Assembly: GCA_965261975.1 (NCBI GenBank)
Contig: CBDHEC010000008.1
Location: forward strand, 72,049-136,048
Reading direction: 5' to 3'
DNA length: 64,000 bases
From: Alphaproteobacteria bacterium
Lineage (GTDB): Bacteria > Pseudomonadota > Alphaproteobacteria > UBA6615
Shown here piece after piece: positions 277 to 11,688 of the stretch (the stretch's first letter is position 1; every line of letters begins with the position of its first letter). A program made the translations under genes and the position numbers. The notes beneath the pieces were generated by a model. That model did no database searches and was not told the origin of the DNA. It saw only the letters and a list, made by a program, of their open reading frames with translations.

Positions 277-375
277 GCTCTCCATTCTGACGTTCGGGCC
301 CACCCGCATCGCGTGCGGACATGGCATAGTATTGACTAAACGTGCTCATACCACAGAAGGCGGCGGAACCGACCC

Positions 376-1176
376 ATGACCTACACCGAACTCATGCTCG
401 ACGTGCACGACAGCGTTGCAACGCTGACACTCAACCGGCCCAAGGCGCGTAACGCACTGGGGGGTGCACTGCGCGACGAGTTCGCGGACGCGGTGGTGCA
501 AATCTCGAAACGCGCGGGGAAGGATATCTCCGCCGTCGTCCTGACGGGGGCGGGCAAGGCCTTCTGTGCCGGCGGCGATTTGCGCGTGCTGCAGGAGATG
601 TCCGCCAAAGGTCCCGATGCCATGCGCGCGCGCATGCACGAATCCCATACCACGCTCGAAAGGTGGCTCGACTTGCCGATACCGACCATCGCGGCCGTCA
701 ATGGTGCGGCAGCCGGTGCGGGGTTTTCCCTCGCCATCGCCTGCGACTTCGTGTTTGCCGTGAACAATGCCCGTTTCATCATGTCCTTCGGCCGGATCGG
801 CCTCGTGCCCGACTGGGGGGCCATGTATCTGTTGCCACGCCTCGTCGGCCTGCAACGCGCCAAGGACCTGGTACTGACCGCGCGCGAACTCAACGCCGGG
901 GACGCGCAGGACCTTGGGCTGGTGCTCGAAACTTTCGATGGGGACCAGTTGCTGGACCACGCGCAGGCCTTCGCGGCGAAATTCGCCAACGCCTCGCCGG
1001 ATGCCATCGGGATCGCCAAGCGGGTGATGGGATCGGCCCTGGAAACCGATCGCACCACCGCGCTGTCCGCCGAGGCCCACGCCCAGGCCGAAGCCAACGC
1101 CAGCGACTATCACCGCGACGCGGTAAAGCGCTTCCTGGCCAAGGAACCCGCCCTGTTCGACTGGGACCGGGAATAA
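376..1176 (+). CDS. Enoyl-CoA hydratase/isomerase (crotonase superfamily)
   Basis: TLNRPKARNAL, AFCAGGDL, AAVNGAAAGAGFSLAIACD, IGLVPDWG motifs. Confidence 0.93.
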   Translation: MTYTELMLDVHDSVATLTLNRPKARNALGGALRDEFADAVVQISKRAGKDISAVVLTGAGKAFCAGGDLRVLQEMSAKGPDAMRARMHESHTTLERWLDLPIPTIAAVNGAAAGAGFSLAIACDFVFAVNNARFIMSFGRIGLVPDWGAMYLLPRLVGLQRAKDLVLTARELNAGDAQDLGLVLETFDGDQLLDHAQAFAAKFANASPDAIGIAKRVMGSALETDRTTALSAEAHAQAEANASDYHRDAVKRFLAKEPALFDWDRE

Positions 1177-1185
1177 GAAAGTTCG

Positions 1186-1809
1186 TCAGGTGCCCGCACC
1201 AAGACGGCGGGCCACGATGTGAAACACATGCCAGTGTTTCGACTCGCCACGCGGGGTGGTCGAGTCATCCTCTTCCTCGACAAAATGTTCGACGTCGAAA
1301 CCCGCGAGCAGGCCCTCGATGTCGGCGCGACTATGGAAGGTCATCCCTTCGCGGCCCATCCAGCTGTCCCGCTCCCCGTAAAGCTGCCCGGCAAACCGAC
1401 CGCCGGGACGGAGCGATGATTCAATCCGTCGCCATACCGAGTTGAAATCCGGTGGCGCACAAAGCGGCAGGGCGAAACTGCTGTTCACAAGGTCGCATGT
1501 GGGCCATGCCGCGTCCTCGAAACGGGACACGAGGCCGGCCAGATCGGTGCCTGGCGGCAGGTCGGGACGCGCTTTCAGGGCGTCGATGGCGTCCGGCTCG
1601 GCATCAATGGCCAGCACCCGCCAACCGCGGCGCAGCATCTCGATGGCATCCCGGCCCGCGCCCGAGCCGAGATCAACGGCAAATCGCGCGCCATCTGCGG
1701 GGTCTTCTTCGAACCGGTCGAGGGCGAAAATCAGTGTATTGCGCGGCGGGCGGCCAATGGTTTTCGCATAATAGGCCGCCCAGTCGCGGTCTTTGGGTGA
1801 CGTGCTCAC
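1186..1809 (-). CDS. Class I SAM-dependent methyltransferase
   Basis: Motif I VDLGSGAGRD and acidic residue in VLAID; GTG start overlaps the upstream TGA (1806-1809). Confidence 0.88.
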   Translation of the reverse strand: MSTSPKDRDWAAYYAKTIGRPPRNTLIFALDRFEEDPADGARFAVDLGSGAGRDAIEMLRRGWRVLAIDAEPDAIDALKARPDLPPGTDLAGLVSRFEDAAWPTCDLVNSSFALPLCAPPDFNSVWRRIESSLRPGGRFAGQLYGERDSWMGREGMTFHSRADIEGLLAGFDVEHFVEEEDDSTTPRGESKHWHVFHIVARRLGAGT

Positions 1810-2657
1810 CCGCTCAATCTGATCTCGCCGAGACTGATGCTCTCACCGAGAGTTACCTCACGCTGCTCGGCACCCAGGCCTTCGGCGGAAATCGAGACGA
1901 CATAGACGCCGCTCTCCGGAGCCACCCGGTCGATCTTGAAATCCCCATATCCATCCGTGGTGGTTTCGGCGACGGTTTTTCCGTCCTGCGTCAGCACGAT
2001 CCGGGCGCCCTCGACGCAATCTACGATCCCTTCACGTTCGGCCGAAACCGTCCCGCCAACAAAGCACTCGGCATATCGCCAGAGATTCTTGTAGTGCACA
2101 CGGGCCTTGGTCTTGAGGTCGGGCCGGAGTGGTTCCAGGCCTTCTTCATCAGACACTTTCTGCATGGCACCATCATCGACCTTGAGCGAGCGTAAAGCAC
2201 CCGTCGGGCAAACATCGACACAGCGCGGCTCGGTCCAGCCGGCGTCGAGCAGATGAGCATCGAAGATCCAGTGCTGAGGTATCTCCAGCTCTTCGTTCCA
2301 GAAAATCGCGCCATAAGGACACGCGTCGACGATCTGGCGCTGACCCTTGGATTTTTCCGGATCGATCACGACGATCCCATCCGGGCGTTTCTTGATGGCG
2401 TCATCCTTGGCCGCAGAGATGCACGGCGCGTCGTCGCAGTGCTGACACATGGTCGGCAGGTAGGCGACGTCGGTCATGGTCCCCTGCCCGCGTTCTCGCC
2501 GCTTGATGTCGATCCAGCGATGCCCATGCTTGGGCATCTCGGCTGCATATCCGGCAAAGCTGTTGCCCACATGCTCGTCCTGCACGGCCAGGGTACAATT
2601 GTTGCAGTTCGTGCAGTTTGCGACGTCGACGATCAGGTTCCATTTGGGCTGACTCAT
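1806..2657 (-). CDS. Fe-S (small) subunit of a pyrogallol transhydroxylase-like molybdoenzyme
   Basis: CxxCNNC...DEH...GHRW...RERG...CQHCDDAPC...[10 protein letters not shown]...CPYG...V.YKNL plus a C-terminal beta-sandwich; closely follows the Pelobacter transhydroxylase beta subunit as I recall it. Confidence 0.88.
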
Positions 2658-5644
2658 GCCACGTCTCCCACGCTCACCGGTTCAATCCGCTCATACTCGA
2701 CGACCCCGTCCCAGGGCACGATCTCGACCATGGTCGTGCTGTTGGCCATCGAGTGGGAATTCTTGATCTGCGATCGCCGGGGCGACAGCAGGTTGAGACA
2801 ACCACCTCGGTCGACCGAACGTCCGGGCTCGCCCATGGGTTCGTAGACGGCCGCGGATTCGTAACCATGAGCGACGCCGGGCTGCAAACGCTCGGTCAGG
2901 AGTGCGGCGCACAGAACCGCGCCGCGATCGTTGAAAACCTTCACCAGATCACCGGTCGAAATGCCACGCGCGGCTGCGTCGGTCGGGTTGAGGCGAAGCA
3001 CCCAGTAATAATGACCGTCGATCAGCACCCGATGATCTGGGATGTCGTTCAGGAAACTGTCCTTGCCATCGCCATGGCTGTGGAAGCTGAAACGCGAATG
3101 GGGCGTGAGCAGCTGAAGCGGATAGCGATCGCCCAGCCCGGCGACCTTCGGCCCCTCCCAGGCTGAAGCATATTTCGCGATCGGCGGCCTCTCGGGGTCA
3201 TCGGGCGCGAAACGTTTCAGGCTCGAACTCTCGAACTCGAACAGGCCCGACTGGGTTTGCAGCCCTTCGAGGAACTGCTCGGTGTAGTCGCCGGGCAACG
3301 GCATCGCTTCGGGAATGTTCTTCTTCTCGCCGTCGGCGAACCATTTATAGGCCGTCGGTGCACGAAGCTCGGGCGCCTCGGGCGGCACCACGAAATAGCC
3401 GCGCTCGATGAACTTCTTCCACGAGATGTGCTGCGGCAGGTCGGACGCATCGAACATCCGCTTCACCCAGTCGATGTCACGCATGCCCTCCGTATAGTAG
3501 GCGCCAAGGCCCAGCCGGCAGGCCAGGCGCGAGAAGATCTCGTAGTCGGATTTCGATTCCCCGACCGGCTCGATGCATTTGGCCTGGAAGGTGATGATCC
3601 GGTTGTTGGTCTGGGAATGGAAATGGGCCCCGTAACCACCGGCATTGGCCCACTCGCCGATATCGTAGCGTTCCATGCTCGTACAGGCCGGCAGGATGAC
3701 ATCGGCAAACCGGGTATCGCCCTCCTCCCAGATCGCCTGGCTGACGGCGAACTCCAGGTTGGGCGACCGGTACATTTCCACGAAACGGTTGGAATCACTC
3801 AACGTGCCCAGGATCGCCGTGCCGTAGCGATAAAGCATGTGCACGGGCGAGTGACCCTGTTTGGGATAGCTGATCTTGGTGAACTGACCTTCCATCGAAA
3901 GCGCGTCCCACAAGAACCCCTCGGCATGTCCGTCGATGATCGCGTCGGGCAGACGCAAGCGCGGAATTTTCTGGGTCGAGGGATTCATCGTCGGCAGTTG
4001 GGGCATGCGCTGATAGAGCGCGCCGGCCAACGCGGTGTTGTTCAGATCACCCGAGATGCCGCCTTCGGCATAGCCGGGGAAATAGAAACTGAAATCATGC
4101 GGCACGCCGAGCTGAAGATTGCTGACATTGATCCCGGGCTTGCCCAACCCCTGCATGCCCATGAGGCAGACGAGCATCCGGGTCCACTGGCTGCCCGTCG
4201 CGTTTCGCGCGGCACCGCCGAACGCGTTGCCCATGCTGCCGGCGGCCAGGTAGGTCCGCTTGGAGGCCCATTTGCGCGCCAACGCGCGGACGTCCTTGGC
4301 GGGGACACCGGTTTCGGTCTCCTGCCATTCCGGTGTCTTCGCGATTCCGTCTTCGGTCCCGAGGATGTAGTCGCGCCATGTCTCGAATCCCTTGGTCCGG
4401 GTCGCGACATACTCCTTGTCGTAGGTTCCTTCGGTGATCCAGACATGCGCGATGGCCAGGGCCAGCGCCGGCGACGTGGTCGGCTTCGGCGCAATCCATT
4501 TGCCGCCGAGGAATTGTGCGGTGTCGTTGTAGTAGGGATCGATGTGGACAATCTCGATGTCGATATCGCGCAGCCACTGACGCCGGACCGTGCCTTCCTG
4601 CCCACCATAGACGCCGCTGGTCGCCTCCGGATTGCTCGACCAGAAGACGATCATCTCAGCGTTCTCGAGGCAGTCCTCGATGGTGCCGAAGGGTTCGCCA
4701 CCGCCGACGCGCAAACTGCCGCCCCAATGGTGCAACGCCCCCCAGTACCAGCCCTCCCAGCTGTCGGGATTGTGGTGCACGTCGGTCGTGCCGATGGCAT
4801 TCATGAAGCGCAGCTTGGCGCTGAGGTAGTAACCTATGTTGCCCCAATTGTGATGGGAGCCGTTGCTCGACGCGATCGCGCCGGTGCCATGCTCGCGCTT
4901 CATGCGCTTGATTTCACCCGCGACAATGTCCAGCGCCTCGTCCCAGCTGATGCGCTCATAACCGGACACACCCCGATTCTGGATATTGCGCTCCCCATTC
5001 GGGTCGAAATCGACACGCTTCATCGGATACTGAATCCGGTTCGGCGCGTTGACCATCGCCTTCCAGTTCATCGCATGGGGCGACAGCATACCCTTGCGCG
5101 GCGGGGTGAATTCCCTGCCCCGCGCCTTGATCGTCCAGGTCCCGGCGTCTTCTCCATCGAAGGCAACCGGCGTGGTGCGCAGAATTTCACCGTCGCGGAC
5201 ATAGACAAATAGCGGCCCGCCATTGGTCATGGTGCAGAAGCGCGTGGTCCCGTCTTTCATCTTGCGCCCGAACTTCCAGCCGGCCGACAGGGCGGCCATC
5301 ACGGTCTGGGCGAACCACAATGCGTCATCATCGGGACCTTCCAGACGCACCAGAAAATTCTTCAACGCATCAATCTGTTCCAACTGATCAATCGGCGGCA
5401 TCAACAACCGGGCCCCGATCTTGGCTGTCTTGAAGACCAGCGATACGGTCGGCGCGTCGTGCAAACCCGCGCCCGATCGCACGCGACCATCTTCAAAAAT
5501 TATGTAGCGACCCGATTTGCCGTCCTCGCTGCGGATCTGAACCACGATATTGCGTTCGCGCAAACGCGCCCGGAAGGCCGGATAGCGCCACCCGGAAACC
5601 CGGAACATCCACGACAGACCCCAAAGGATGATCTTGAACAGCAT
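2654..5644 (-). CDS. Mo-bisPGD (DMSO reductase family) catalytic subunit, pyrogallol transhydroxylase/resorcinol hydroxylase clade, with an extra N-terminal domain
   Basis: [52 protein letters not shown] (Ser ligand motif), FADVILPA, C-terminal [20 protein letters not shown] molybdopterin dinucleotide domain; no Tat signal or N-terminal Cys cluster. Confidence 0.9.
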
Positions 5645-5674
5645 GCGTCTTCCCCAACCCCGCGACAGGCAGGC

Positions 5675-6508
5675 CTATTCGGCGGTGTAACCACCATCAA
5701 TATAAAGCGTGTGACCGGTCACATAATCGGACGCCGGCGACAGAAGATAAATCAGTCCGCCCATTAGATCGTCTGTCTCCGACAGCCGGCCGACAGGCAC
5801 ACGTTCGAGCATCGCTTCGCGCGTGGCCTTGCCCGGATCCTCGTCCGAGAACATCCATTCCGACAGCGGTGAGCGAAAAACCGTCGGCCCGATGGCGTTG
5901 ATATTGGCGTTCTTGCCACCCCATTCACAGGCCAGCGCCCTGACCATGCCGTCCAGCCCCGCCTTGGATGCGCAGTAACCGGTATAGCCCGTCGGCAGGC
6001 CATGGCGGCCGCGCGTGGACGAGACCACGACCACTTTCGACCGTCCGCGTTCGGTCGGTTGCTTGGCGAATTGTCGGCCTGCCGCCTGACAGGCCAGCCA
6101 GTAACCGTCCAGGTTGGCGGACATCACGTTGCGCCAGCTTTCGTAGGATTGTTCCTCGATATAGCCGACATCATTCATGCCCGTGGCAACAAACATCAGG
6201 TCGAGAGCGCCAAAGGCCTCGACCGCGGCGGAAACCATATTCACCGCGTTGGTCTCGCTGTCCGGCAACCCGATCGCCGTGGCGACCCTGGCGCCGGTGT
6301 CGCGCAACTCGTCGGCCTTGGCTTCGACCTTGTCGGGGTTGAGATCCGCGATCGTTACATCGCAGCCCATCTGCGCCAGCGCTGTCGCCGCCGCGCCGCC
6401 GAAGGAGCCGGTTGCGCCCATCACAAGGGCGGACTTGCCCGAAATATCGAACATGGAAAGTGGTGAATTCTGAGCCAAGGTTAGGTTCCCCGTGTTGGTC
6501 GTCATCAT
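5675..6508 (-). CDS. Short-chain dehydrogenase/reductase (SDR)
   Basis: GATGSFG Rossmann motif, catalytic YCASK, YVTGHTLYIDGG C-terminus; true start may be a downstream Met. Confidence 0.92.
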   Translation of the reverse strand: MMTTNTGNLTLAQNSPLSMFDISGKSALVMGATGSFGGAAATALAQMGCDVTIADLNPDKVEAKADELRDTGARVATAIGLPDSETNAVNMVSAAVEAFGALDLMFVATGMNDVGYIEEQSYESWRNVMSANLDGYWLACQAAGRQFAKQPTERGRSKVVVVSSTRGRHGLPTGYTGYCASKAGLDGMVRALACEWGGKNANINAIGPTVFRSPLSEWMFSDEDPGKATREAMLERVPVGRLSETDDLMGGLIYLLSPASDYVTGHTLYIDGGYTAE

Positions 6509-6545
6509 TTGATGGCGACCAGACTACCCGGTTTTGCGCGCGGGC

Positions 6546-8123
6546 TCACCAGTGCCCGATCAGCACACCCGATTTACCTTCCTTCACCTTGAATTCGCGC
6601 ACGAAGGATTCGGGCGACGTGACCCGATACTTCAGCCCGCTCTGCCAGTCGGCGAGCCGGCGATGCAGCCGGACACGCTCGGCTTCATGGGCGGGGTCGG
6701 CACCCAGATCCTGCAGTTCATCGGGGTCGGATTCGAGATCAAACAACTGTGCGCGGTAGCCTTCATAGGCAATGTACTTCCAGCGCCCCTCGCGCACCAT
6801 GAAGGTGCGGCACTGGTCCGTCGGCCGTTCCAGCGGGTCACGCACATCGGAATAGAAGGCGTAGTCGAGCTCGCTGAAGACCGCGTCACGCCAATCGTCG
6901 GGGTCTTCCCCGCGCAACAGCGGCAGGAGCGATCGGCCCTCGACGATATTGTCGGGAATCTCGAGACCGGCGGCATCGAGGATTGTCGGGACCACATCGA
7001 TCGCCTCGGCAAACCGGTTGTCGACCGTGCCGCGCGTGCTGTCGGCCGCGCTGTCGGGGTCGTAGACGATGAGCGGGATGCGCGAAGATTGCTCATGATA
7101 CATCTCCTTCTCGCCCATCCAGTGATCACCGAGATAGTCACCATGGTCGCTGGTGAAGACGATCATCGTGTCGTCGAACCGCCCCGCCTTGTCGAGCGCT
7201 TCGAACACACGACCTAGATGGCTATCGATCTGCGCGATCAAACCCATATAGGCCGGGATGACGGTTTCGCGAACTTCATCGCGCTGAAACTCGCGCCCCT
7301 CTTCGCGGGCCATGAAGGCCTGGATGACTTCATGATCGGTGTCGCGTTCCTCGGCAGAGCGCACTGCCGGCAGAATATCGTCGACGCCATACATGTTGTG
7401 ATAGGGCGACGAGACGATATAGGGCCAGTGAGGCTTGATGTAGCTGAGGTGCAGACACCAGGGGTCATCCCCCTGCTCGGCGATGAACTCGATGGCCCGA
7501 TCAGACATATAGGCCGTCTCGCCCATCTCATCGGGCACGACCGCGGGCAGGCCGCAATTGCGCATGTTCCAGCCGCTCAGAACATTGCCGTCAGGGTCGG
7601 TCGCCGAGTTGGCGAAGTCATGCCAGGGATTGTCGCTGTCGAAGCCGTTCGCGCGCAGATAGTTTGCATAGTCGGATTCGATACGACCCGCGGCGGCCGG
7701 GTGGATGCCGTCGTCGCGAACCACATAGTCGAACCCACCTCGCATCAAGCCGCTCCCGGCTGCGCTGTCCGGCTCGATGCCGAGGCGCGCCATGCCCGTC
7801 TTGTCTGCGAAGTGATGGGTCTTGCCCGCCAGTGCGACACGCATATCAGACGGGCGAAGCAGATCGCCGAGCATCATTTCCCCGACCGGTAACGGTACGA
7901 AGTTCCAGAACGCGCCATGACTTGCCGCGTAGCGCCCGGTGTAAAAGGACATGCGTGACGGCCCACAAACCGGCGCCTGAACATAGGATTTCGCGAAGCG
8001 CACGCCGCGCGCGGCCAACGCATCGATATTGGGCGTTTTCAGGGTCGGATGCCCTGCGCACGACAGGTAATCAGCGCGCAGCTGATCACACATGATGAAT
8101 AAGACGTTCCGGACGGTTCCCAT
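6546..8123 (-). CDS. Sulfatase/alkaline-phosphatase superfamily hydrolase (phosphonate monoester hydrolase-like)
   Basis: NVLFIMCDQLR, CGPSR (CxPxR formylglycine motif), GKTH, YIKPHWPY, FTSDHGD..G.H. Confidence 0.9.
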   Translation of the reverse strand: MGTVRNVLFIMCDQLRADYLSCAGHPTLKTPNIDALAARGVRFAKSYVQAPVCGPSRMSFYTGRYAASHGAFWNFVPLPVGEMMLGDLLRPSDMRVALAGKTHHFADKTGMARLGIEPDSAAGSGLMRGGFDYVVRDDGIHPAAAGRIESDYANYLRANGFDSDNPWHDFANSATDPDGNVLSGWNMRNCGLPAVVPDEMGETAYMSDRAIEFIAEQGDDPWCLHLSYIKPHWPYIVSSPYHNMYGVDDILPAVRSAEERDTDHEVIQAFMAREEGREFQRDEVRETVIPAYMGLIAQIDSHLGRVFEALDKAGRFDDTMIVFTSDHGDYLGDHWMGEKEMYHEQSSRIPLIVYDPDSAADSTRGTVDNRFAEAIDVVPTILDAAGLEIPDNIVEGRSLLPLLRGEDPDDWRDAVFSELDYAFYSDVRDPLERPTDQCRTFMVREGRWKYIAYEGYRAQLFDLESDPDELQDLGADPAHEAERVRLHRRLADWQSGLKYRVTSPESFVREFKVKEGKSGVLIGHW

Positions 8124-8270
8124 CGATACACCTGCAGCTTCCCCACAATATCGCCGACAACTCTATGCAACCAATGGATGACGACAGCCGACATTTCCGG
8201 AGGTTTTCGTGCAGTGAAACCTCCTGCTAGATTGCGCGCCTGAATTATCCAAAATCCTCGGCGAGATTAG

Positions 8271-9071
8271 ATGACAGGCCTGCAACCCATACGTGCGATC
8301 GAACGCGGCATCTCCGTGATGCGCGCGCTCGAAGAGTTGGGGACCGCCAGCCTGCATCAATTACACGAGAAAACCGGGCTGCACCGCACGACCCTGCTGC
8401 GCATTCTTGTGACGCTCGAGCAACAGGAGCTGGTTCGCCGTGGGCTCGGCGACGGCCTGTACCGGAACACCTTCGGTCTGCGCCGCATGACCGGGACACT
8501 GGACGAGTTCGACCGGTTGGCCGAGATCGCCGGCCCCGTCCTCGGCCGGCTGTGCGAAACGGTCAAATGGCCGTCCGACCTGATGGTGCGCAATGGCGAT
8601 TTCATGGAGATCAAGGAGACCAGCCGGCGCCAGACACCCTTCCTGATGAACCGCGACGAGATCGGCCATCAGGTCGCATTCGCCGTGACCGCCGTCGGCC
8701 GCGCCTATCTGGCATTCTGCCCCGAACACGAACATGACGAGATCGTCGCCGGCCTCAGCAAATCCTCCCACCCTGCAGACCAGATCGCCCGCACACCGGA
8801 GAAGCTGGAGGCCATCCTCGACGAGGTCCGCGCCAACGGCTACGCCACCCGTGACGAGTTCTATCTCGGCGGAAACTATGGCGAGAACACGTTCTTCGAC
8901 GACGGCCTCAGCGCGATTTCCGTGCCGCTCCGGGTCGAAGACCAGGTCCTGGGTTGTGTCAATCTTGTCTGGATGCGGCAGGCGGTGCCGGTGGAAGAAT
9001 TTGTCGCGAACCATCTGGCGGATTTACGCGCGGCTGCCGACGAGATCGTTACCGCCTATATCGAACCCTAG
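8271..9071 (+). CDS. IclR-family transcriptional regulator (MhpR-like)
   Basis: N-terminal HTH (LHQLHEKTGLHRTTLLRILVTL), TAVGRAYLAF, LDEVRANGYA, AISVPL; divergent from the hydrolase/molybdoenzyme operon. Confidence 0.93.
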   Translation: MTGLQPIRAIERGISVMRALEELGTASLHQLHEKTGLHRTTLLRILVTLEQQELVRRGLGDGLYRNTFGLRRMTGTLDEFDRLAEIAGPVLGRLCETVKWPSDLMVRNGDFMEIKETSRRQTPFLMNRDEIGHQVAFAVTAVGRAYLAFCPEHEHDEIVAGLSKSSHPADQIARTPEKLEAILDEVRANGYATRDEFYLGGNYGENTFFDDGLSAISVPLRVEDQVLGCVNLVWMRQAVPVEEFVANHLADLRAAADEIVTAYIEP

Positions 9072-9082
9072 GGACGCCGGCG

Positions 9083-9889
9083 CTATTGCGCCGCGAACGA
9101 AAGCCGCCCACCCGCCGGCAGACCAGCGATCTCCGGTGGCGCGATCCCGGCAACCTCGAGAATCATTTTCTTCAACACCGCCTCGGCAAAGCTGATCGTC
9201 TCGTCGACGGTCACGACAAAAGCCCCCGTGCCGCCAATGATCTGTTCGCGGAACTCCTGCTCCAGCGAGACCGCGCGCGGCGGGCGGGTGCTGCCCGGCC
9301 GGCTGATGGCCAGGCCATTGATCGTGATGCCCGTGGCGACCGCATTGCCGCGCGCCAGGGCCAACGGCATCCCCCCGATATTCCCGGCATCGGCGGAGAT
9401 ATCAATAATCCGCCGCGCGCCGCGATAGGGGTTGGCCTCGATCAGATTCTGGGAATAGGCAATGGCGTTACTGATCGAGTTAAATCCCCAGGCCTGGCGC
9501 GGGGCATCGACCAGCGCGGCGCCGAACGCGGCCGCCGATTCCGGGCCGTCGATCACGGTCTAGTCCACAATCGTGTGCTGAGATTCCGCACTGCCCCACT
9601 CGACATAGGCAATCACGCTCCGACCATGGATGCCGCCGGTCAATAATTCCAGGACACGCGGATTGCGCACGGCATCGGCATAACCTTCGCGCTGCAGCGC
9701 CAGTTCGGCATCGTCGATGGACCCCGAGCCGTCGGCCGCAAGCACAAGTTCAAGATCGACCGGTTGCTGCGCAGCAGCCATACCGGCAGCCAAGGTGCCA
9801 CCGAGGATCACCAGCGCGGCGGCAATTCTGTTTATCTGTTGATAAATGACACCTCTCCCCTGAATGGCGCCCGCGTGAAGACCGAGCAT
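9083..9889 (-). pseudogene. DUF1194 (vWA-like) exported protein interrupted by an in-frame TAG at 9560-9562
   Basis: VDLELVLAADGSGSID...IAYVEW...IVD*TVIDGPESAAAF...RRIIDISAD...ITINGLAI...IIGGTGAFV; both ORFs share a frame; the stop replaces the expected Trp; start uncertain. Confidence 0.8.
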
Positions 9890-10506: not shown

Positions 10507-11688
10507 CTAGAAAATCTCGAACAGGCCGGCCACGCCCATGCCGCCGCCGACACACATGGTGACGACGGCGTTCTTGGCACCGCGACGATGCCCCTCGATG
10601 AGCGCATGCCCGGTCATCCGGTTGCCGCTCATGCCATAGGGATGCCCGATCGAGATCGAACCGCCATCGACATTGTATTTTTCCGGGTCGATGCCCAGCG
10701 TGTCTCGGCAATAGAGCGCCTGGACAGCGAACGCTTCGTTCAATTCCCAAAGGTCGATATCATCGACGTTGAGGCCATTACGCTCCAGCAGGCGCGGTAC
10801 GGCAAACACCGGCCCGATGCCCATCTCGTCGGGCTCACACCCGGAAACGGCCAGGCCGAGATAGCGCCCGAGCGGCTCGAGACCGCGCTGCTCGGCGAGC
10901 TTCTCATCCATCACCACGCACGCGCTGGCACCATCGGAAAGCTGGCTGGCGTTTCCCGCAGTGACCGACCCGCCCTCGCGCACGGCGCCGAGGCCGGCCA
11001 GGCTCTCCGAGTTCGTCGTTGGCCGGTTGCATTCGTCACGATCAAGGGTCACAGCCTTCTCGCTGACCTCGCCGGTCTCCCGGTCCTTCACCATCATGGT
11101 TGTCTCGACGGGGACGATTTCATCGTCGAAACGGCCCGCCTGCTGAGCCGCTGCGGTGCGCATCTGGCTCGACAAGGCATACTCATCCTGGCTCTCGCGG
11201 CTGACGTCATATCGATTGGCCACCGTCTCGGCCGTGTCGAGCATGACCATGAAGATCTCGGGTTTCACATCGCGCACATGAGGGTCCTCGACCCGCATAT
11301 CGGCCTGATGCGCCGGGTCCAGGGCGCTGATCGCCTCGATGCCTCCGGCCACGGCGACCGGCACCTTGTCCATGACCACGCGGTTCGCCGCCGAGGCAAT
11401 CGACTGCAGGCCCGACGAACAGAAGCGGTTGATCGTGGCCGCGCCTGCGGTCACCGGGACACCCGCCCACAACGCCGCATGGCGGGCAAAATTCTGTCCG
11501 GTCGCACCCTCGGGGTTGGCACAGCCCATCAGCACGTCTTCAACCATGTCAGGTTCGATCCCGGCGCGCTCGACCGCGTTCTTGATCGCGATCCCACCAA
11601 GTTTCGCCGGCGTGGTGTTGTTGAAAGATCCGCGATACGCCTTCCCGATCGGGGTCCGGGCGGTGGATACGATAACGGCACTGGTCAT
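10507..11688 (-). CDS. Acetyl-CoA C-acyltransferase (thiolase)
   Basis: INRFCSSG (Cys), ELNEAFA, GHPYG (His), MCVGGGMG (Cys). Confidence 0.96.

Follow-up and report, generated by a model that had tools for sequence, protein, structure and literature searches.

Organization and conservation of the operon

The genes considered here lie in a 64,000-nucleotide stretch of DNA, hereafter the window (GenBank assembly GCA_965261975.1, contig CBDHEC010000008.1, positions 72,049 to 136,048), from an alphaproteobacterium of the lineage UBA6615. Five co-oriented genes encoding a sulfatase, a short-chain dehydrogenase/reductase (SDR), the large and iron-sulfur (Fe-S) subunits of a molybdenum (Mo) enzyme, and a methyltransferase are divergent from the gene for an IclR-family regulator (Table 1). 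We propose, with what we judge to be an even chance of being right, that they form a cytoplasmic operon, controlled by the IclR protein, through which a sulfated polyhydroxybenzene enters the phloroglucinol pathway. An earlier note, made from the sequence alone, had described this arrangement and its spacing, had named the products as a hydrolase, an SDR, an AthL/BthL-like pair, a methyltransferase and an MhpR-like IclR protein, and had remarked on the lack of a Tat signal, membrane anchor or electron-transfer partner. The open reading frame table and searches with Pfam and NCBIfam models agree with the layout, and domain searches recovered each of the named identities. The operon contains no membrane, cytochrome or other electron-transfer partner, and its enzymes are cytoplasmic. 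Where a Tat signal would stand, the large subunit instead begins with ~135 residues that are predicted to form a folded, SCP2-like domain.

Table 1. Genes and other features of the operon and its regulator, in window coordinates.
Feature	Position	Strand	Description
SpAS1-type formylglycine arylsulfatase gene	6546-8123	minus	525 aa; first gene of the operon; Pfam Sulfatase, 4.9e-48
Phloroglucinol-reductase-like SDR gene	5675-6508	minus	277 aa; Pfam adh_short_C2, 2.9e-43
Long-form AthL-like molybdopterin subunit gene	2654-5644	minus	996 aa; Pfam Molybdopterin, AhtL-like_1st and Molydop_binding
Predicted SCP2-fold domain at the large-subunit N-terminus (residues 1 to ~135)	5240-5644	minus	predicted model and Foldseek
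BthL-like Fe-S subunit gene	1806-2657	minus	283 aa; Pfam Fer4_11 and CarboxypepD_reg (PF13620, Ig-like C-terminal domain)
Small class I S-adenosylmethionine methyltransferase gene (TehB-like)	1186-1809	minus	207 aa; Pfam Methyltransf_25/_11
IclR-family regulator gene (MhpR-like), divergent from the operon	8271-9071	plus	266 aa; HTH_IclR (PF09339) and IclR_C (PF01614)
Divergent promoter/operator region	8124-8270		147 bp between the sulfatase and IclR genes

The sulfatase and SDR genes are separated by 37 bp (6509-6545) and the SDR and large-subunit genes by 30 bp (5645-5674), and the two remaining junctions are 4-bp overlaps, at 2654-2657 between the Mo-enzyme genes and at 1806-1809 between the Fe-S and methyltransferase genes. 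The same gene set is kept at 78-97% protein identity in four related genomes (L033-L036), and it recurs in a fifth locus that is clipped by a contig start (L052) and in three metagenome contigs (L181-L183). Because the set is kept across relatives and metagenome contigs, we consider the operon to be real and under selection, and not a chance run of open reading frames.

The regulator carries both the N-terminal helix-turn-helix domain and the C-terminal effector domain of the IclR family, and its best NCBIfam model is PRK09834.1-3 (182.8 bits, under the cut-off of 269). Within the divergent region, at 8199-8224, we identified an inverted repeat, GGAGGTTT-N10-AAACCTCC, which is a candidate IclR operator. 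In an alignment of this region, the ~90 bp nearest the IclR gene, which contain the repeat core GGTTTTCG...GAAACC, are shared by four relatives that carry the sulfatase gene and by one locus that is free of it (L159). The distal half does not align. A promoter and terminator scan of positions 300-9300 returned 0 promoter-like sites and 7 terminator-like sites against 6.5 expected, and was uninformative.

A reductase related to phloroglucinol reductase

Among SDRs of solved structure, the protein appears closest, both by sequence and by predicted fold, to a characterized phloroglucinol reductase (PGR). Its best sequence match in the Protein Data Bank (PDB) is entry 5g4k (169.5 bits vs 129 bits for the next), and the top three fold matches of its AlphaFold model (pLDDT 80.5) are 5g4k_B, 5g4k_A and 5g4l_A, at 36-37% identity; both entries bear the title ‘Phloroglucinol reductase from Clostridium sp.’. 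The substrate-loop motif PTVFRS.L.EWMF is common to the window protein and 5g4k. Most database homologues begin ~10-17 residues later (94-96% query coverage), and the true start of the SDR may therefore lie downstream of the annotated one.

This resemblance places the SDR and the Mo enzyme on familiar ground. Conversion of pyrogallol to phloroglucinol by a transhydroxylase, followed by reduction to dihydrophloroglucinol by PGR, is the known route for trihydroxybenzenes as set out in the available text of PMC10470551. The same text assigns the later steps in Clostridium scatologenes to DPGC (cyclase family), TfD (resembling 3-hydroxyacyl-CoA dehydrogenase, HADH) and TAL (BKACE family). The earlier note knew of no characterized pathway with this gene set. 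For the core formed by the SDR and Mo enzyme that claim fails, because a transhydroxylase followed by PGR is already known as the classical route (PMC10470551). Moreover, homologues of pgthAB and PGR, with no DPGC, are described for aerobic marine SAR116 Alphaproteobacteria in the part seen of a 2026 preprint (bioRxiv 10.64898/2026.07.17.739263). That system resembles the window in its enzyme pair, in its aerobic marine alphaproteobacterial host and in that DPGC was likewise not found; the two differ in that the word ‘sulfatase’ occurs 0 times in the preprint text at hand.

One database SDR of 61% identity (protein P0083) carries the label ‘unnamed protein product’ and has the kelp Laminaria digitata as its stated source, its contig being 1212 bp in length. 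Most simply, the kelp assembly contains some bacterial DNA, and a bacterium living with the kelp is its probable origin.

A long form of the AthL/BthL enzyme

The two Mo-enzyme subunits are most similar, among solved structures, to those of the transhydroxylase of Pelobacter acidigallici (4v4c-4v4e). The large subunit matches 4v4c_A with 946.5 bits (residues 135-981 on chain positions 6-870), compared with 240 bits for dimethyl sulfoxide reductase, and contains the AhtL-like first domain (PF21423) at 3e-24; the small subunit matches 4v4c_B with 245.4 bits. Like AthL/BthL, the window enzyme is a two-subunit, cytoplasmic, bis-molybdopterin guanine dinucleotide enzyme with no Tat leader and with a serine as Mo ligand, its large subunit sharing the AthL first domain and its small subunit the C-terminal Ig-like domain of BthL. 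The host differs from Pelobacter in being an apparently aerobic marine alphaproteobacterium. The closest large-subunit records come from metagenome-assembled genomes labeled Rhodospirillaceae or Alphaproteobacteria.

Residues H264, D294, S295, Y525 and Y671 correspond to AthL His144, Asp174, Ser175, Tyr404 and Tyr560, and the equivalents of His144, Asp174, Ser175 and Tyr404 are invariant in our large-subunit alignment. The AthL residue roles that we use reportedly come from a 2004 study by Messerschmidt: we take His144, Asp174 and Tyr404 to be catalytic and Arg153 to belong to the substrate pocket. In PgtL/RhL, the serine is the Mo ligand according to the accessible text of PMC10100899. The window enzyme departs from AthL at Arg153, which is replaced by Tyr273 (invariant in the same alignment), and at Trp354, which is replaced by Phe. 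Across 84 matched segments from the best 80 of ~3400 genome-collection stretches estimated to carry the AthL-like family, the His, Asp and Ser equivalents are kept in 82, the other two being partial. The Arg153 position holds Tyr in 64 segments, Trp in 13 and Arg in five, and is partial in two. All 13 segments with Trp are long forms, in records from sulfate reducers, Dehalococcoidia, Actinomycetota and Thermoleophilia, and the five with Arg are three short forms and the second copies that stand beside long forms in L124 and L148.

What makes these proteins long is an N-terminal extension of ~135 residues that AthL lacks. A Pfam search with the N-terminal 143 residues of the large subunit found no family at E ≤ 10. 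The AlphaFold2 model of the domain (mean pLDDT 84.0, pTM 0.74), compared with the PDB using Foldseek, gave 36 matches at E ≤ 0.001. With similar chains of one entry collapsed, every match listed is to an SCP2, UbiJ-SCP2 or alkylsulfatase entry, and for the last type the match spans 90-106 columns. We thus assign the predicted domain to the SCP2 fold, by fold only, since there is no Pfam sequence match. The domain is found in 414 representative clusters, and in homologues with identities as low as 58% its conservation sets in at residue 1-4. Among 4760 database proteins that match the large subunit at E ≤ 1e-100, nearly all of the 120 listed are ~1000 amino acids in length. Of the best 80 genome loci, 76 have matches that start at or before residue 22, one is clipped by a contig end, and three start at residues 125-140 and are the short forms. 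A literature search found no paper joining ‘transhydroxylase’ and ‘SCP2’.

The small subunit differs from BthL in that V, W and D take the place of three of its 12 cluster cysteines, and by sequence one of the three [4Fe-4S] sites appears to be lost. The W and D substitutions occur in 13 of 22 aligned small-subunit rows, all from proteobacterial (mostly alpha and gamma) records; the other nine, of anaerobe, actinobacterial and short-form types, keep those two cysteines. Because two defining features, Arg153 and the full Fe-S set, are missing, we file the Mo enzyme as transhydroxylase-like and not as an orthologue of the Pelobacter enzyme.

Long and short forms also occur side by side. At L124 (6302-12925) and L148 (1-8000), a long-form pair with an SCP2 domain and Trp at the Arg153 position adjoins a second AthL/BthL-like pair with Arg. 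At L154 (419-8400), the long-form pair is accompanied by a more distant second pair (35%), in which the Arg153 position is unreadable.

Gene neighborhoods and later pathway steps

Two sets of loci were used to survey the surroundings of the Mo enzyme: 20 loci from relatives, and the 80 genome-collection loci described above. The sets may overlap and are not independent. In a search of 61 relatives, 23 genomes, the window's own included, carry the large subunit at E ≤ 1e-100, and it is present in 11 of 11 other genomes of the genus and in 21 of 36 others of the family. At the 20 relatives' loci, the Fe-S gene follows in 19, the SDR, methyltransferase and convergent crotonase genes are found in 11, the IclR gene in four, and the sulfatase gene in five, one of which is clipped by a contig start. 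Nine more distant relatives' loci have only the two Mo-enzyme genes (in one case the large subunit alone, at a contig end). The neighbors, scanned in seven of these nine, are varied and include TRAP transporters, glutathione S-transferases, and an IclR gene with a cupin gene.

At the 80 genome loci, the Fe-S gene adjoins in 68 and a close SDR (80-91%) is found in six. Ten loci of a Xanthobacteraceae type carry an SDR gene 43-51% identical to that of the window, together with a cyclase-family gene, 3-7 kb upstream. One of them, L137, also has an HADH-family gene. SDR relatives in this identity range stand near cyclase genes in these ten loci and in L180, a locus without the Mo enzyme that is described below, and HADH genes are present in both loci checked (L137 and L180). 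The cyclase, SDR and HADH families at these loci are the families of C. scatologenes DPGC, PGR and TfD. Finally, a BKACE gene resembling one on contig C39 of the window's own genome lies near the Mo enzyme in four of the 80 (L124, L134, L157 and L173); that of L173 scores 386 bits on a 3,5-dioxohexanoate transferase model, under the cut-off of 430. The recurrence of reductase, cyclase, HADH and BKACE neighbors supports a role for the Mo-enzyme family in making or handling phloroglucinol-type rings.

The genome that contains the window (3.03 Mb in 59 contigs, 94.6% complete) has nine cyclase-family matches and five BKACE genes, none on the window contig and no contig with both. NCBIfam models named none of eight cyclase-family proteins of this genome as DPGC. 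The C39 BKACE (L066 6047-7057, minus strand) scores 526.6 bits against the cut-off of 430 on the NCBIfam model ‘3,5-dioxohexanoate:acetyl-CoA acetone transferase’ and is thus by model of the triacetate-cleaving type; it sits among unrelated SGL, GNAT and DHDPS-family genes, and is the genome's best match to the L173 BKACE, at 46% identity. Compared with the PGR-DPGC-TfD-TAL pathway of C. scatologenes, the window has in common a PGR-like SDR gene directly upstream of the Mo enzyme and, elsewhere in the genome, a BKACE that passes the transferase model. It differs in that the operon has no BKACE gene, that searches of the genome with the cyclase and HADH of L137 gave no close match, and that a sulfatase and a methyltransferase have been added.

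The survey also turned up several unusual arrangements. In L041, from a related genus, a gene for a 134-amino-acid Polyketide_cyc2 (SRPBCC) protein (11102-11506, minus strand) is inserted between the SDR and Mo-enzyme genes. In L119 (6230-9867), genes for an acyl-CoA dehydrogenase, a BadH-like SDR and a PRK08258-type crotonase precede the Mo enzyme immediately and in the same orientation, with a second crotonase-like match by tblastn; the same two crotonase matches and SDR are seen by tblastn in L121 (6274-9000). These two loci may represent a CoA-ester ring pathway linked to the same Mo-enzyme family. In members of the window's family, at L265 (6752-9863) and L266 (6833-9861), the SDR gene stands away from the Mo enzyme, beside genes for a MarR regulator, a protein of 225-243 amino acids of unknown family, and a pirin, and SnoaL_4 and EamA genes lie near the SDR gene in L265 and L267 (7263-9889). 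The surroundings of the SDR in L265-L267 suggest a flavonoid-to-phloroglucinol context.

The sulfatase and its recruitment into the operon

The first enzyme of the operon belongs by sequence to the SpAS1 group of arylsulfatases. It aligns to 4upi over residues 4-525, has the formylglycine motif C-G-P-S-R (CxPxR) at residues 53-57, and retains the DHGD metal motif. Entry 4UPI is the Silicibacter pomeroyi arylsulfatase SpAS1, which has no choline-sulfatase activity according to the text available to us (PMC5870055). The window protein resembles SpAS1 and SpAS2 (Silicibacter/Ruegeria pomeroyi, 4upi/4upl) in its full-length identity of ~58%, CxPxR motif, metal ligands, C-terminal extension and lack of a signal peptide; it is distinguished by being encoded within a phenol-catabolic operon. 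The protein begins directly with its catalytic domain, with no leader peptide, and is therefore cytoplasmic. Matches to the formylglycine-generating-enzyme (FGE) family PF03781, which is also said to include non-FGE members, occur at two places in the window's own genome, on contigs C34 and C8.

Several observations bear on how the sulfatase gene came to be where it is. It is kept at 90-96% identity in the four related genomes, in the fifth, clipped locus, and in the three metagenome contigs (90-91%, with the whole operon). The nearest relatives outside this operon clade are only 58-63% identical. L159 has the DUF1194, IclR (75%), SDR, Mo-enzyme, Fe-S, methyltransferase and crotonase genes, with the IclR gene directly divergent from that of the SDR and no sulfatase gene. 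L049 has an IclR remnant with an internal deletion, and no sulfatase remnant was found in relatives that do not have the gene, L049 included. We constructed a maximum-likelihood tree from 17 large-subunit rows, taken from those of the relatives', genome-collection and metagenome loci that belong to the genus or adjoin it, with one outgroup included. The rows with a sulfatase gene, nine in all, group together as a single clade (support 99/98). In its sister clade (97/96) are rows with neither gene, rows with the IclR gene alone or a remnant of it, and rows of unknown state; rows that lack both genes are basal in the tree as drawn, its midpoint root serving for drawing only. The simplest reading of these sequences is a single insertion of the sulfatase gene, as first gene, into an operon that was already IclR-controlled, in one sub-clade of one genus. 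Thus, the SDR, Mo-enzyme, Fe-S and methyltransferase genes make up the older unit, and the IclR gene with its operator was in place before the sulfatase gene arrived as a late addition.

We considered that the IclR and sulfatase genes might have travelled as a mobile pair. This idea was rejected: a related IclR gene lies within 1.5 kb in 0 of 29 other genome sulfatase loci, and in metagenomes an IclR gene of 32-42% identity is nearby in four of 77 loci, in two of them adjacent, which does not amount to general pairing.

Two further loci join SpAS1-like sulfatases to PGR-like reductases. L180 (894-12782), from another alphaproteobacterial family, has two cyclase genes, a PGR-like SDR gene and an HADH gene on one strand, along with a divergent gene for a 341-amino-acid crotonase, a sulfatase gene and a TTT transporter (TctA/TctB). 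Its SDR, 44% identical to that of the window, sits between the two cyclase genes and the HADH gene, and the SpAS1-like sulfatase (52%) and a LysR gene are divergent from the cyclase-SDR strand. This locus looks like a sulfatase-fed phloroglucinol cluster without the Mo enzyme. In L265, from another genus of the window's family, a sulfatase of 59% identity and an SDR of 73% identity are 4.7 kb apart, with unrelated genes between them. In a sample of 401 genomes from the class, nine have the Mo enzyme and 44 an SpAS1-like sulfatase, the latter being present in five of the nine and in 39 of the other 392. We give no statistic on this difference because the genomes are kin, the five with both genes including two of one genus and two of the window's family.

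Proposed pathway and competing explanations

Taken together, these observations suggest a known trihydroxybenzene core to which an arylsulfatase has been newly recruited under a pre-existing IclR regulator, in a host that feeds on sulfated seaweed-type phenols. In a first step, the SpAS1-type arylsulfatase would remove sulfate from a phenolic sulfate ester, as expected from its family. The long-form AthL/BthL-type enzyme would then, in a reaction independent of O2, move, add or remove a hydroxyl group of the ring and so yield phloroglucinol or something closely analogous, as its homology and its gene neighborhoods elsewhere suggest. Finally, the SDR, with NAD(P)H, would reduce this product to a cyclic diketone of the dihydrophloroglucinol type, consistent with its closest solved relative and conserved loop. 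The IclR protein would probably sense a phenol and act at the 8199-8224 inverted repeat. The order given by the earlier note, in which ester cleavage precedes ring hydroxyl chemistry and the SDR acts next, is reasonable.

Three groups of observations weigh against this proposal. The first concerns the tie between the sulfatase and the remainder of the operon. A sulfatase gene adjoins the Mo enzyme in 0 of the 80 genome loci, and in metagenomes neither a Mo enzyme nor a PGR-like gene lies close to the relative of the sulfatase in 77 of 80 cases. The earlier note had staked its pathway on co-occurrence of the Mo enzyme with both hydrolase and SDR; the SDR association holds in the nearest genera and at the ten Xanthobacteraceae-type loci, and that with the hydrolase does not hold beyond the five of 20 relatives' loci. 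The sulfatase could thus be an unrelated passenger between the IclR promoter and the SDR gene, serving for example in sulfur scavenging, while the SDR, Mo enzyme, Fe-S subunit and methyltransferase alone act on unsulfated phenols. The restriction of the gene to one sub-clade, the distance of its relatives outside that clade, and the varied contexts in which SpAS1-like sulfatases occur across the class would all fit such a passenger. Nevertheless, the gene stands first in the operon with a spacing of only 37 bp and is well kept across the clade, and SpAS1-like sulfatases occur near PGR-like genes in L180 (directly) and L265 (at 4.7 kb). We therefore regard a passenger as unlikely.

The second group concerns the chemistry of the Mo enzyme. 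It departs in four respects from the only characterized transhydroxylase (the SCP2 domain, Tyr for Arg153, Phe for Trp354, and the lost Fe-S cluster), and the long-form AthL family is enzymatically uncharacterized. An identity of ~50% cannot tell a transhydroxylase from a resorcinol-type hydroxylase. Furthermore, short forms with Arg stand beside long forms in L124 and L148, and therefore the two forms, judged by their sequences, probably catalyze different steps. The long form might then be a water-dependent hydroxylase or a reductive dehydroxylase that acts on a more hydrophobic (alkyl- or prenyl-) phenol or donates electrons to a quinone bound in the SCP2 domain, and the SDR would reduce a different hydroxy-diketo ring. 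SCP2-type domains bind lipids or isoprenoid quinones, and SCP2 folds including UbiJ are the structural matches of the N-terminal domain. In addition, all long forms have Tyr or Trp at the Arg153 position, with Arg in short forms only, one Fe-S cluster is lost in the aerobe-type branch, and long and short pairs occur together in L124 and L148, with a more distant second pair in L154. Against a change of chemistry of this kind stand the recurring PGR-like SDR, cyclase, HADH and BKACE neighbors, which fit small, water-soluble phenols, the phloroglucinol-reductase substrate loop retained by the SDR, and the invariant equivalents of His144, Asp174, Ser175 and Tyr404. On balance, we consider a hydroxylase or dehydroxylase of this sort improbable.

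The third group concerns the completeness of the pathway. The best matches in the window's own genome to the cyclase and HADH of L137 are only 30% and 36% identical, respectively, and consequently DPGC and TfD were not found there with these queries. The operon encodes no transporter, and in the class sample, with six candidates scored per genome, a close PGR-like SDR (E ≤ 1e-60) turned up in only two of the nine genomes that carry the Mo enzyme.

Lastly, the earlier note had left the hydrolase substrate as a sulfate or a phosph(on)ate ester, and the choice now falls on sulfate: a phosphonate or phosphate ester hydrolase of the PMH/PehA type, with an operon that handles a phenol phosph(on)ate ester, is very improbable, since its top NCBIfam model, PehA, is reached at 347 bits, far under the cut-off of 900, and the phosphonate monoester hydrolase (PMH) structures reach 241 and 239 bits where SpAS1 scores 580.7 bits (E 3.4e-173) and SpAS2 571 bits, even if the SpAS/PMH group is promiscuous according to published abstracts.

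A candidate substrate

If the sulfatase does feed the Mo enzyme and the SDR, brown algae offer a candidate for the compound on which the operon acts. In the portions seen of PMC13412289, these algae are stated to contain tetrahydroxybenzene, pyrogallol and hydroxyquinol, and tetrahydroxybenzene, with the 1,2,3,5-form named, is given as cosubstrate for the conversion of pyrogallol or hydroxyquinol to phloroglucinol in Pelobacter. Also on record is 1,2,3,5-tetrahydroxybenzene 2,5-disulfate from Ascophyllum (Jensen & Ragan 1978, in the reference list of PMC6995553). Because tetrahydroxybenzene is named as the Pelobacter cosubstrate (PMC13412289, in the same portions), its disulfate is an attractive candidate.

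We can therefore imagine the operon as a dedicated route for 1,2,3,5-tetrahydroxybenzene 2,5-disulfate, as the main sulfated phenol exuded by fucoid brown algae. Tetrahydroxybenzene freed by the sulfatase would be turned into phloroglucinol by the Mo enzyme, through dehydroxylation or disproportionation, and this product would be dearomatized by the SDR; the long forms would then be a distinct and very widespread enzyme class. So specific a version is a long shot, and the named substrate is a guess that cannot be read from the sequence.

Methyltransferase and flanking genes

The last gene of the operon gives few clues to its function. Its neighbors in a protein atlas are small-molecule class I methyltransferases, many of them labeled TehB, with no close characterized relative. 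The gene follows the Fe-S gene in 11 of the 20 relatives' loci and in five of the 80 genome-collection loci.

The convergent crotonase gene at 376-1176 (plus strand) was considered as a ring-opening diketone hydrolase and rejected. The best solved relatives of its product are ordinary enoyl-CoA hydratases and PaaG, and its identity to the in-operon crotonase of L180 is only 25%. Its synteny goes with a general conservation of gene order, given that amidase, YCII and thiolase genes are equally syntenic.

On the other side, the DUF1194 gene beside the IclR gene (9083-9889, minus strand) has an in-frame TAG at 9560-9562. This position is Trp (..TIVDW..) in eight of eight relatives examined, and the TAG, which is peculiar to this genome, reflects either a nonsense mutation or an error in sequencing.

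Implications

Sulfated phenols and phlorotannin-type compounds make up a large and poorly tracked share of the dissolved carbon and organic sulfur derived from seaweed. A literature search on phloroglucinol, sulfatase, phlorotannin and marine bacteria, covering the parts of the texts that were available, found no sulfatase-fed route of this kind described. What is new here is a recently recruited arylsulfatase on a known transhydroxylase-reductase module, the latter in a widespread long form. If it is true that the sulfatase feeds the transhydroxylase-reductase pair, the operon provides a concrete gene set with which to test the use of aryl-sulfated polyphenols by bacteria in oxic seawater. 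It is also a natural handle on the uncharacterized long-form AthL family, which is not represented by the single crystallized enzyme. Should the tetrahydroxybenzene reading prove true as well, the long forms, with their SCP2 domain and Tyr or Trp in place of Arg, would convert tetra- and trihydroxybenzenes in oxic seawater and soil.

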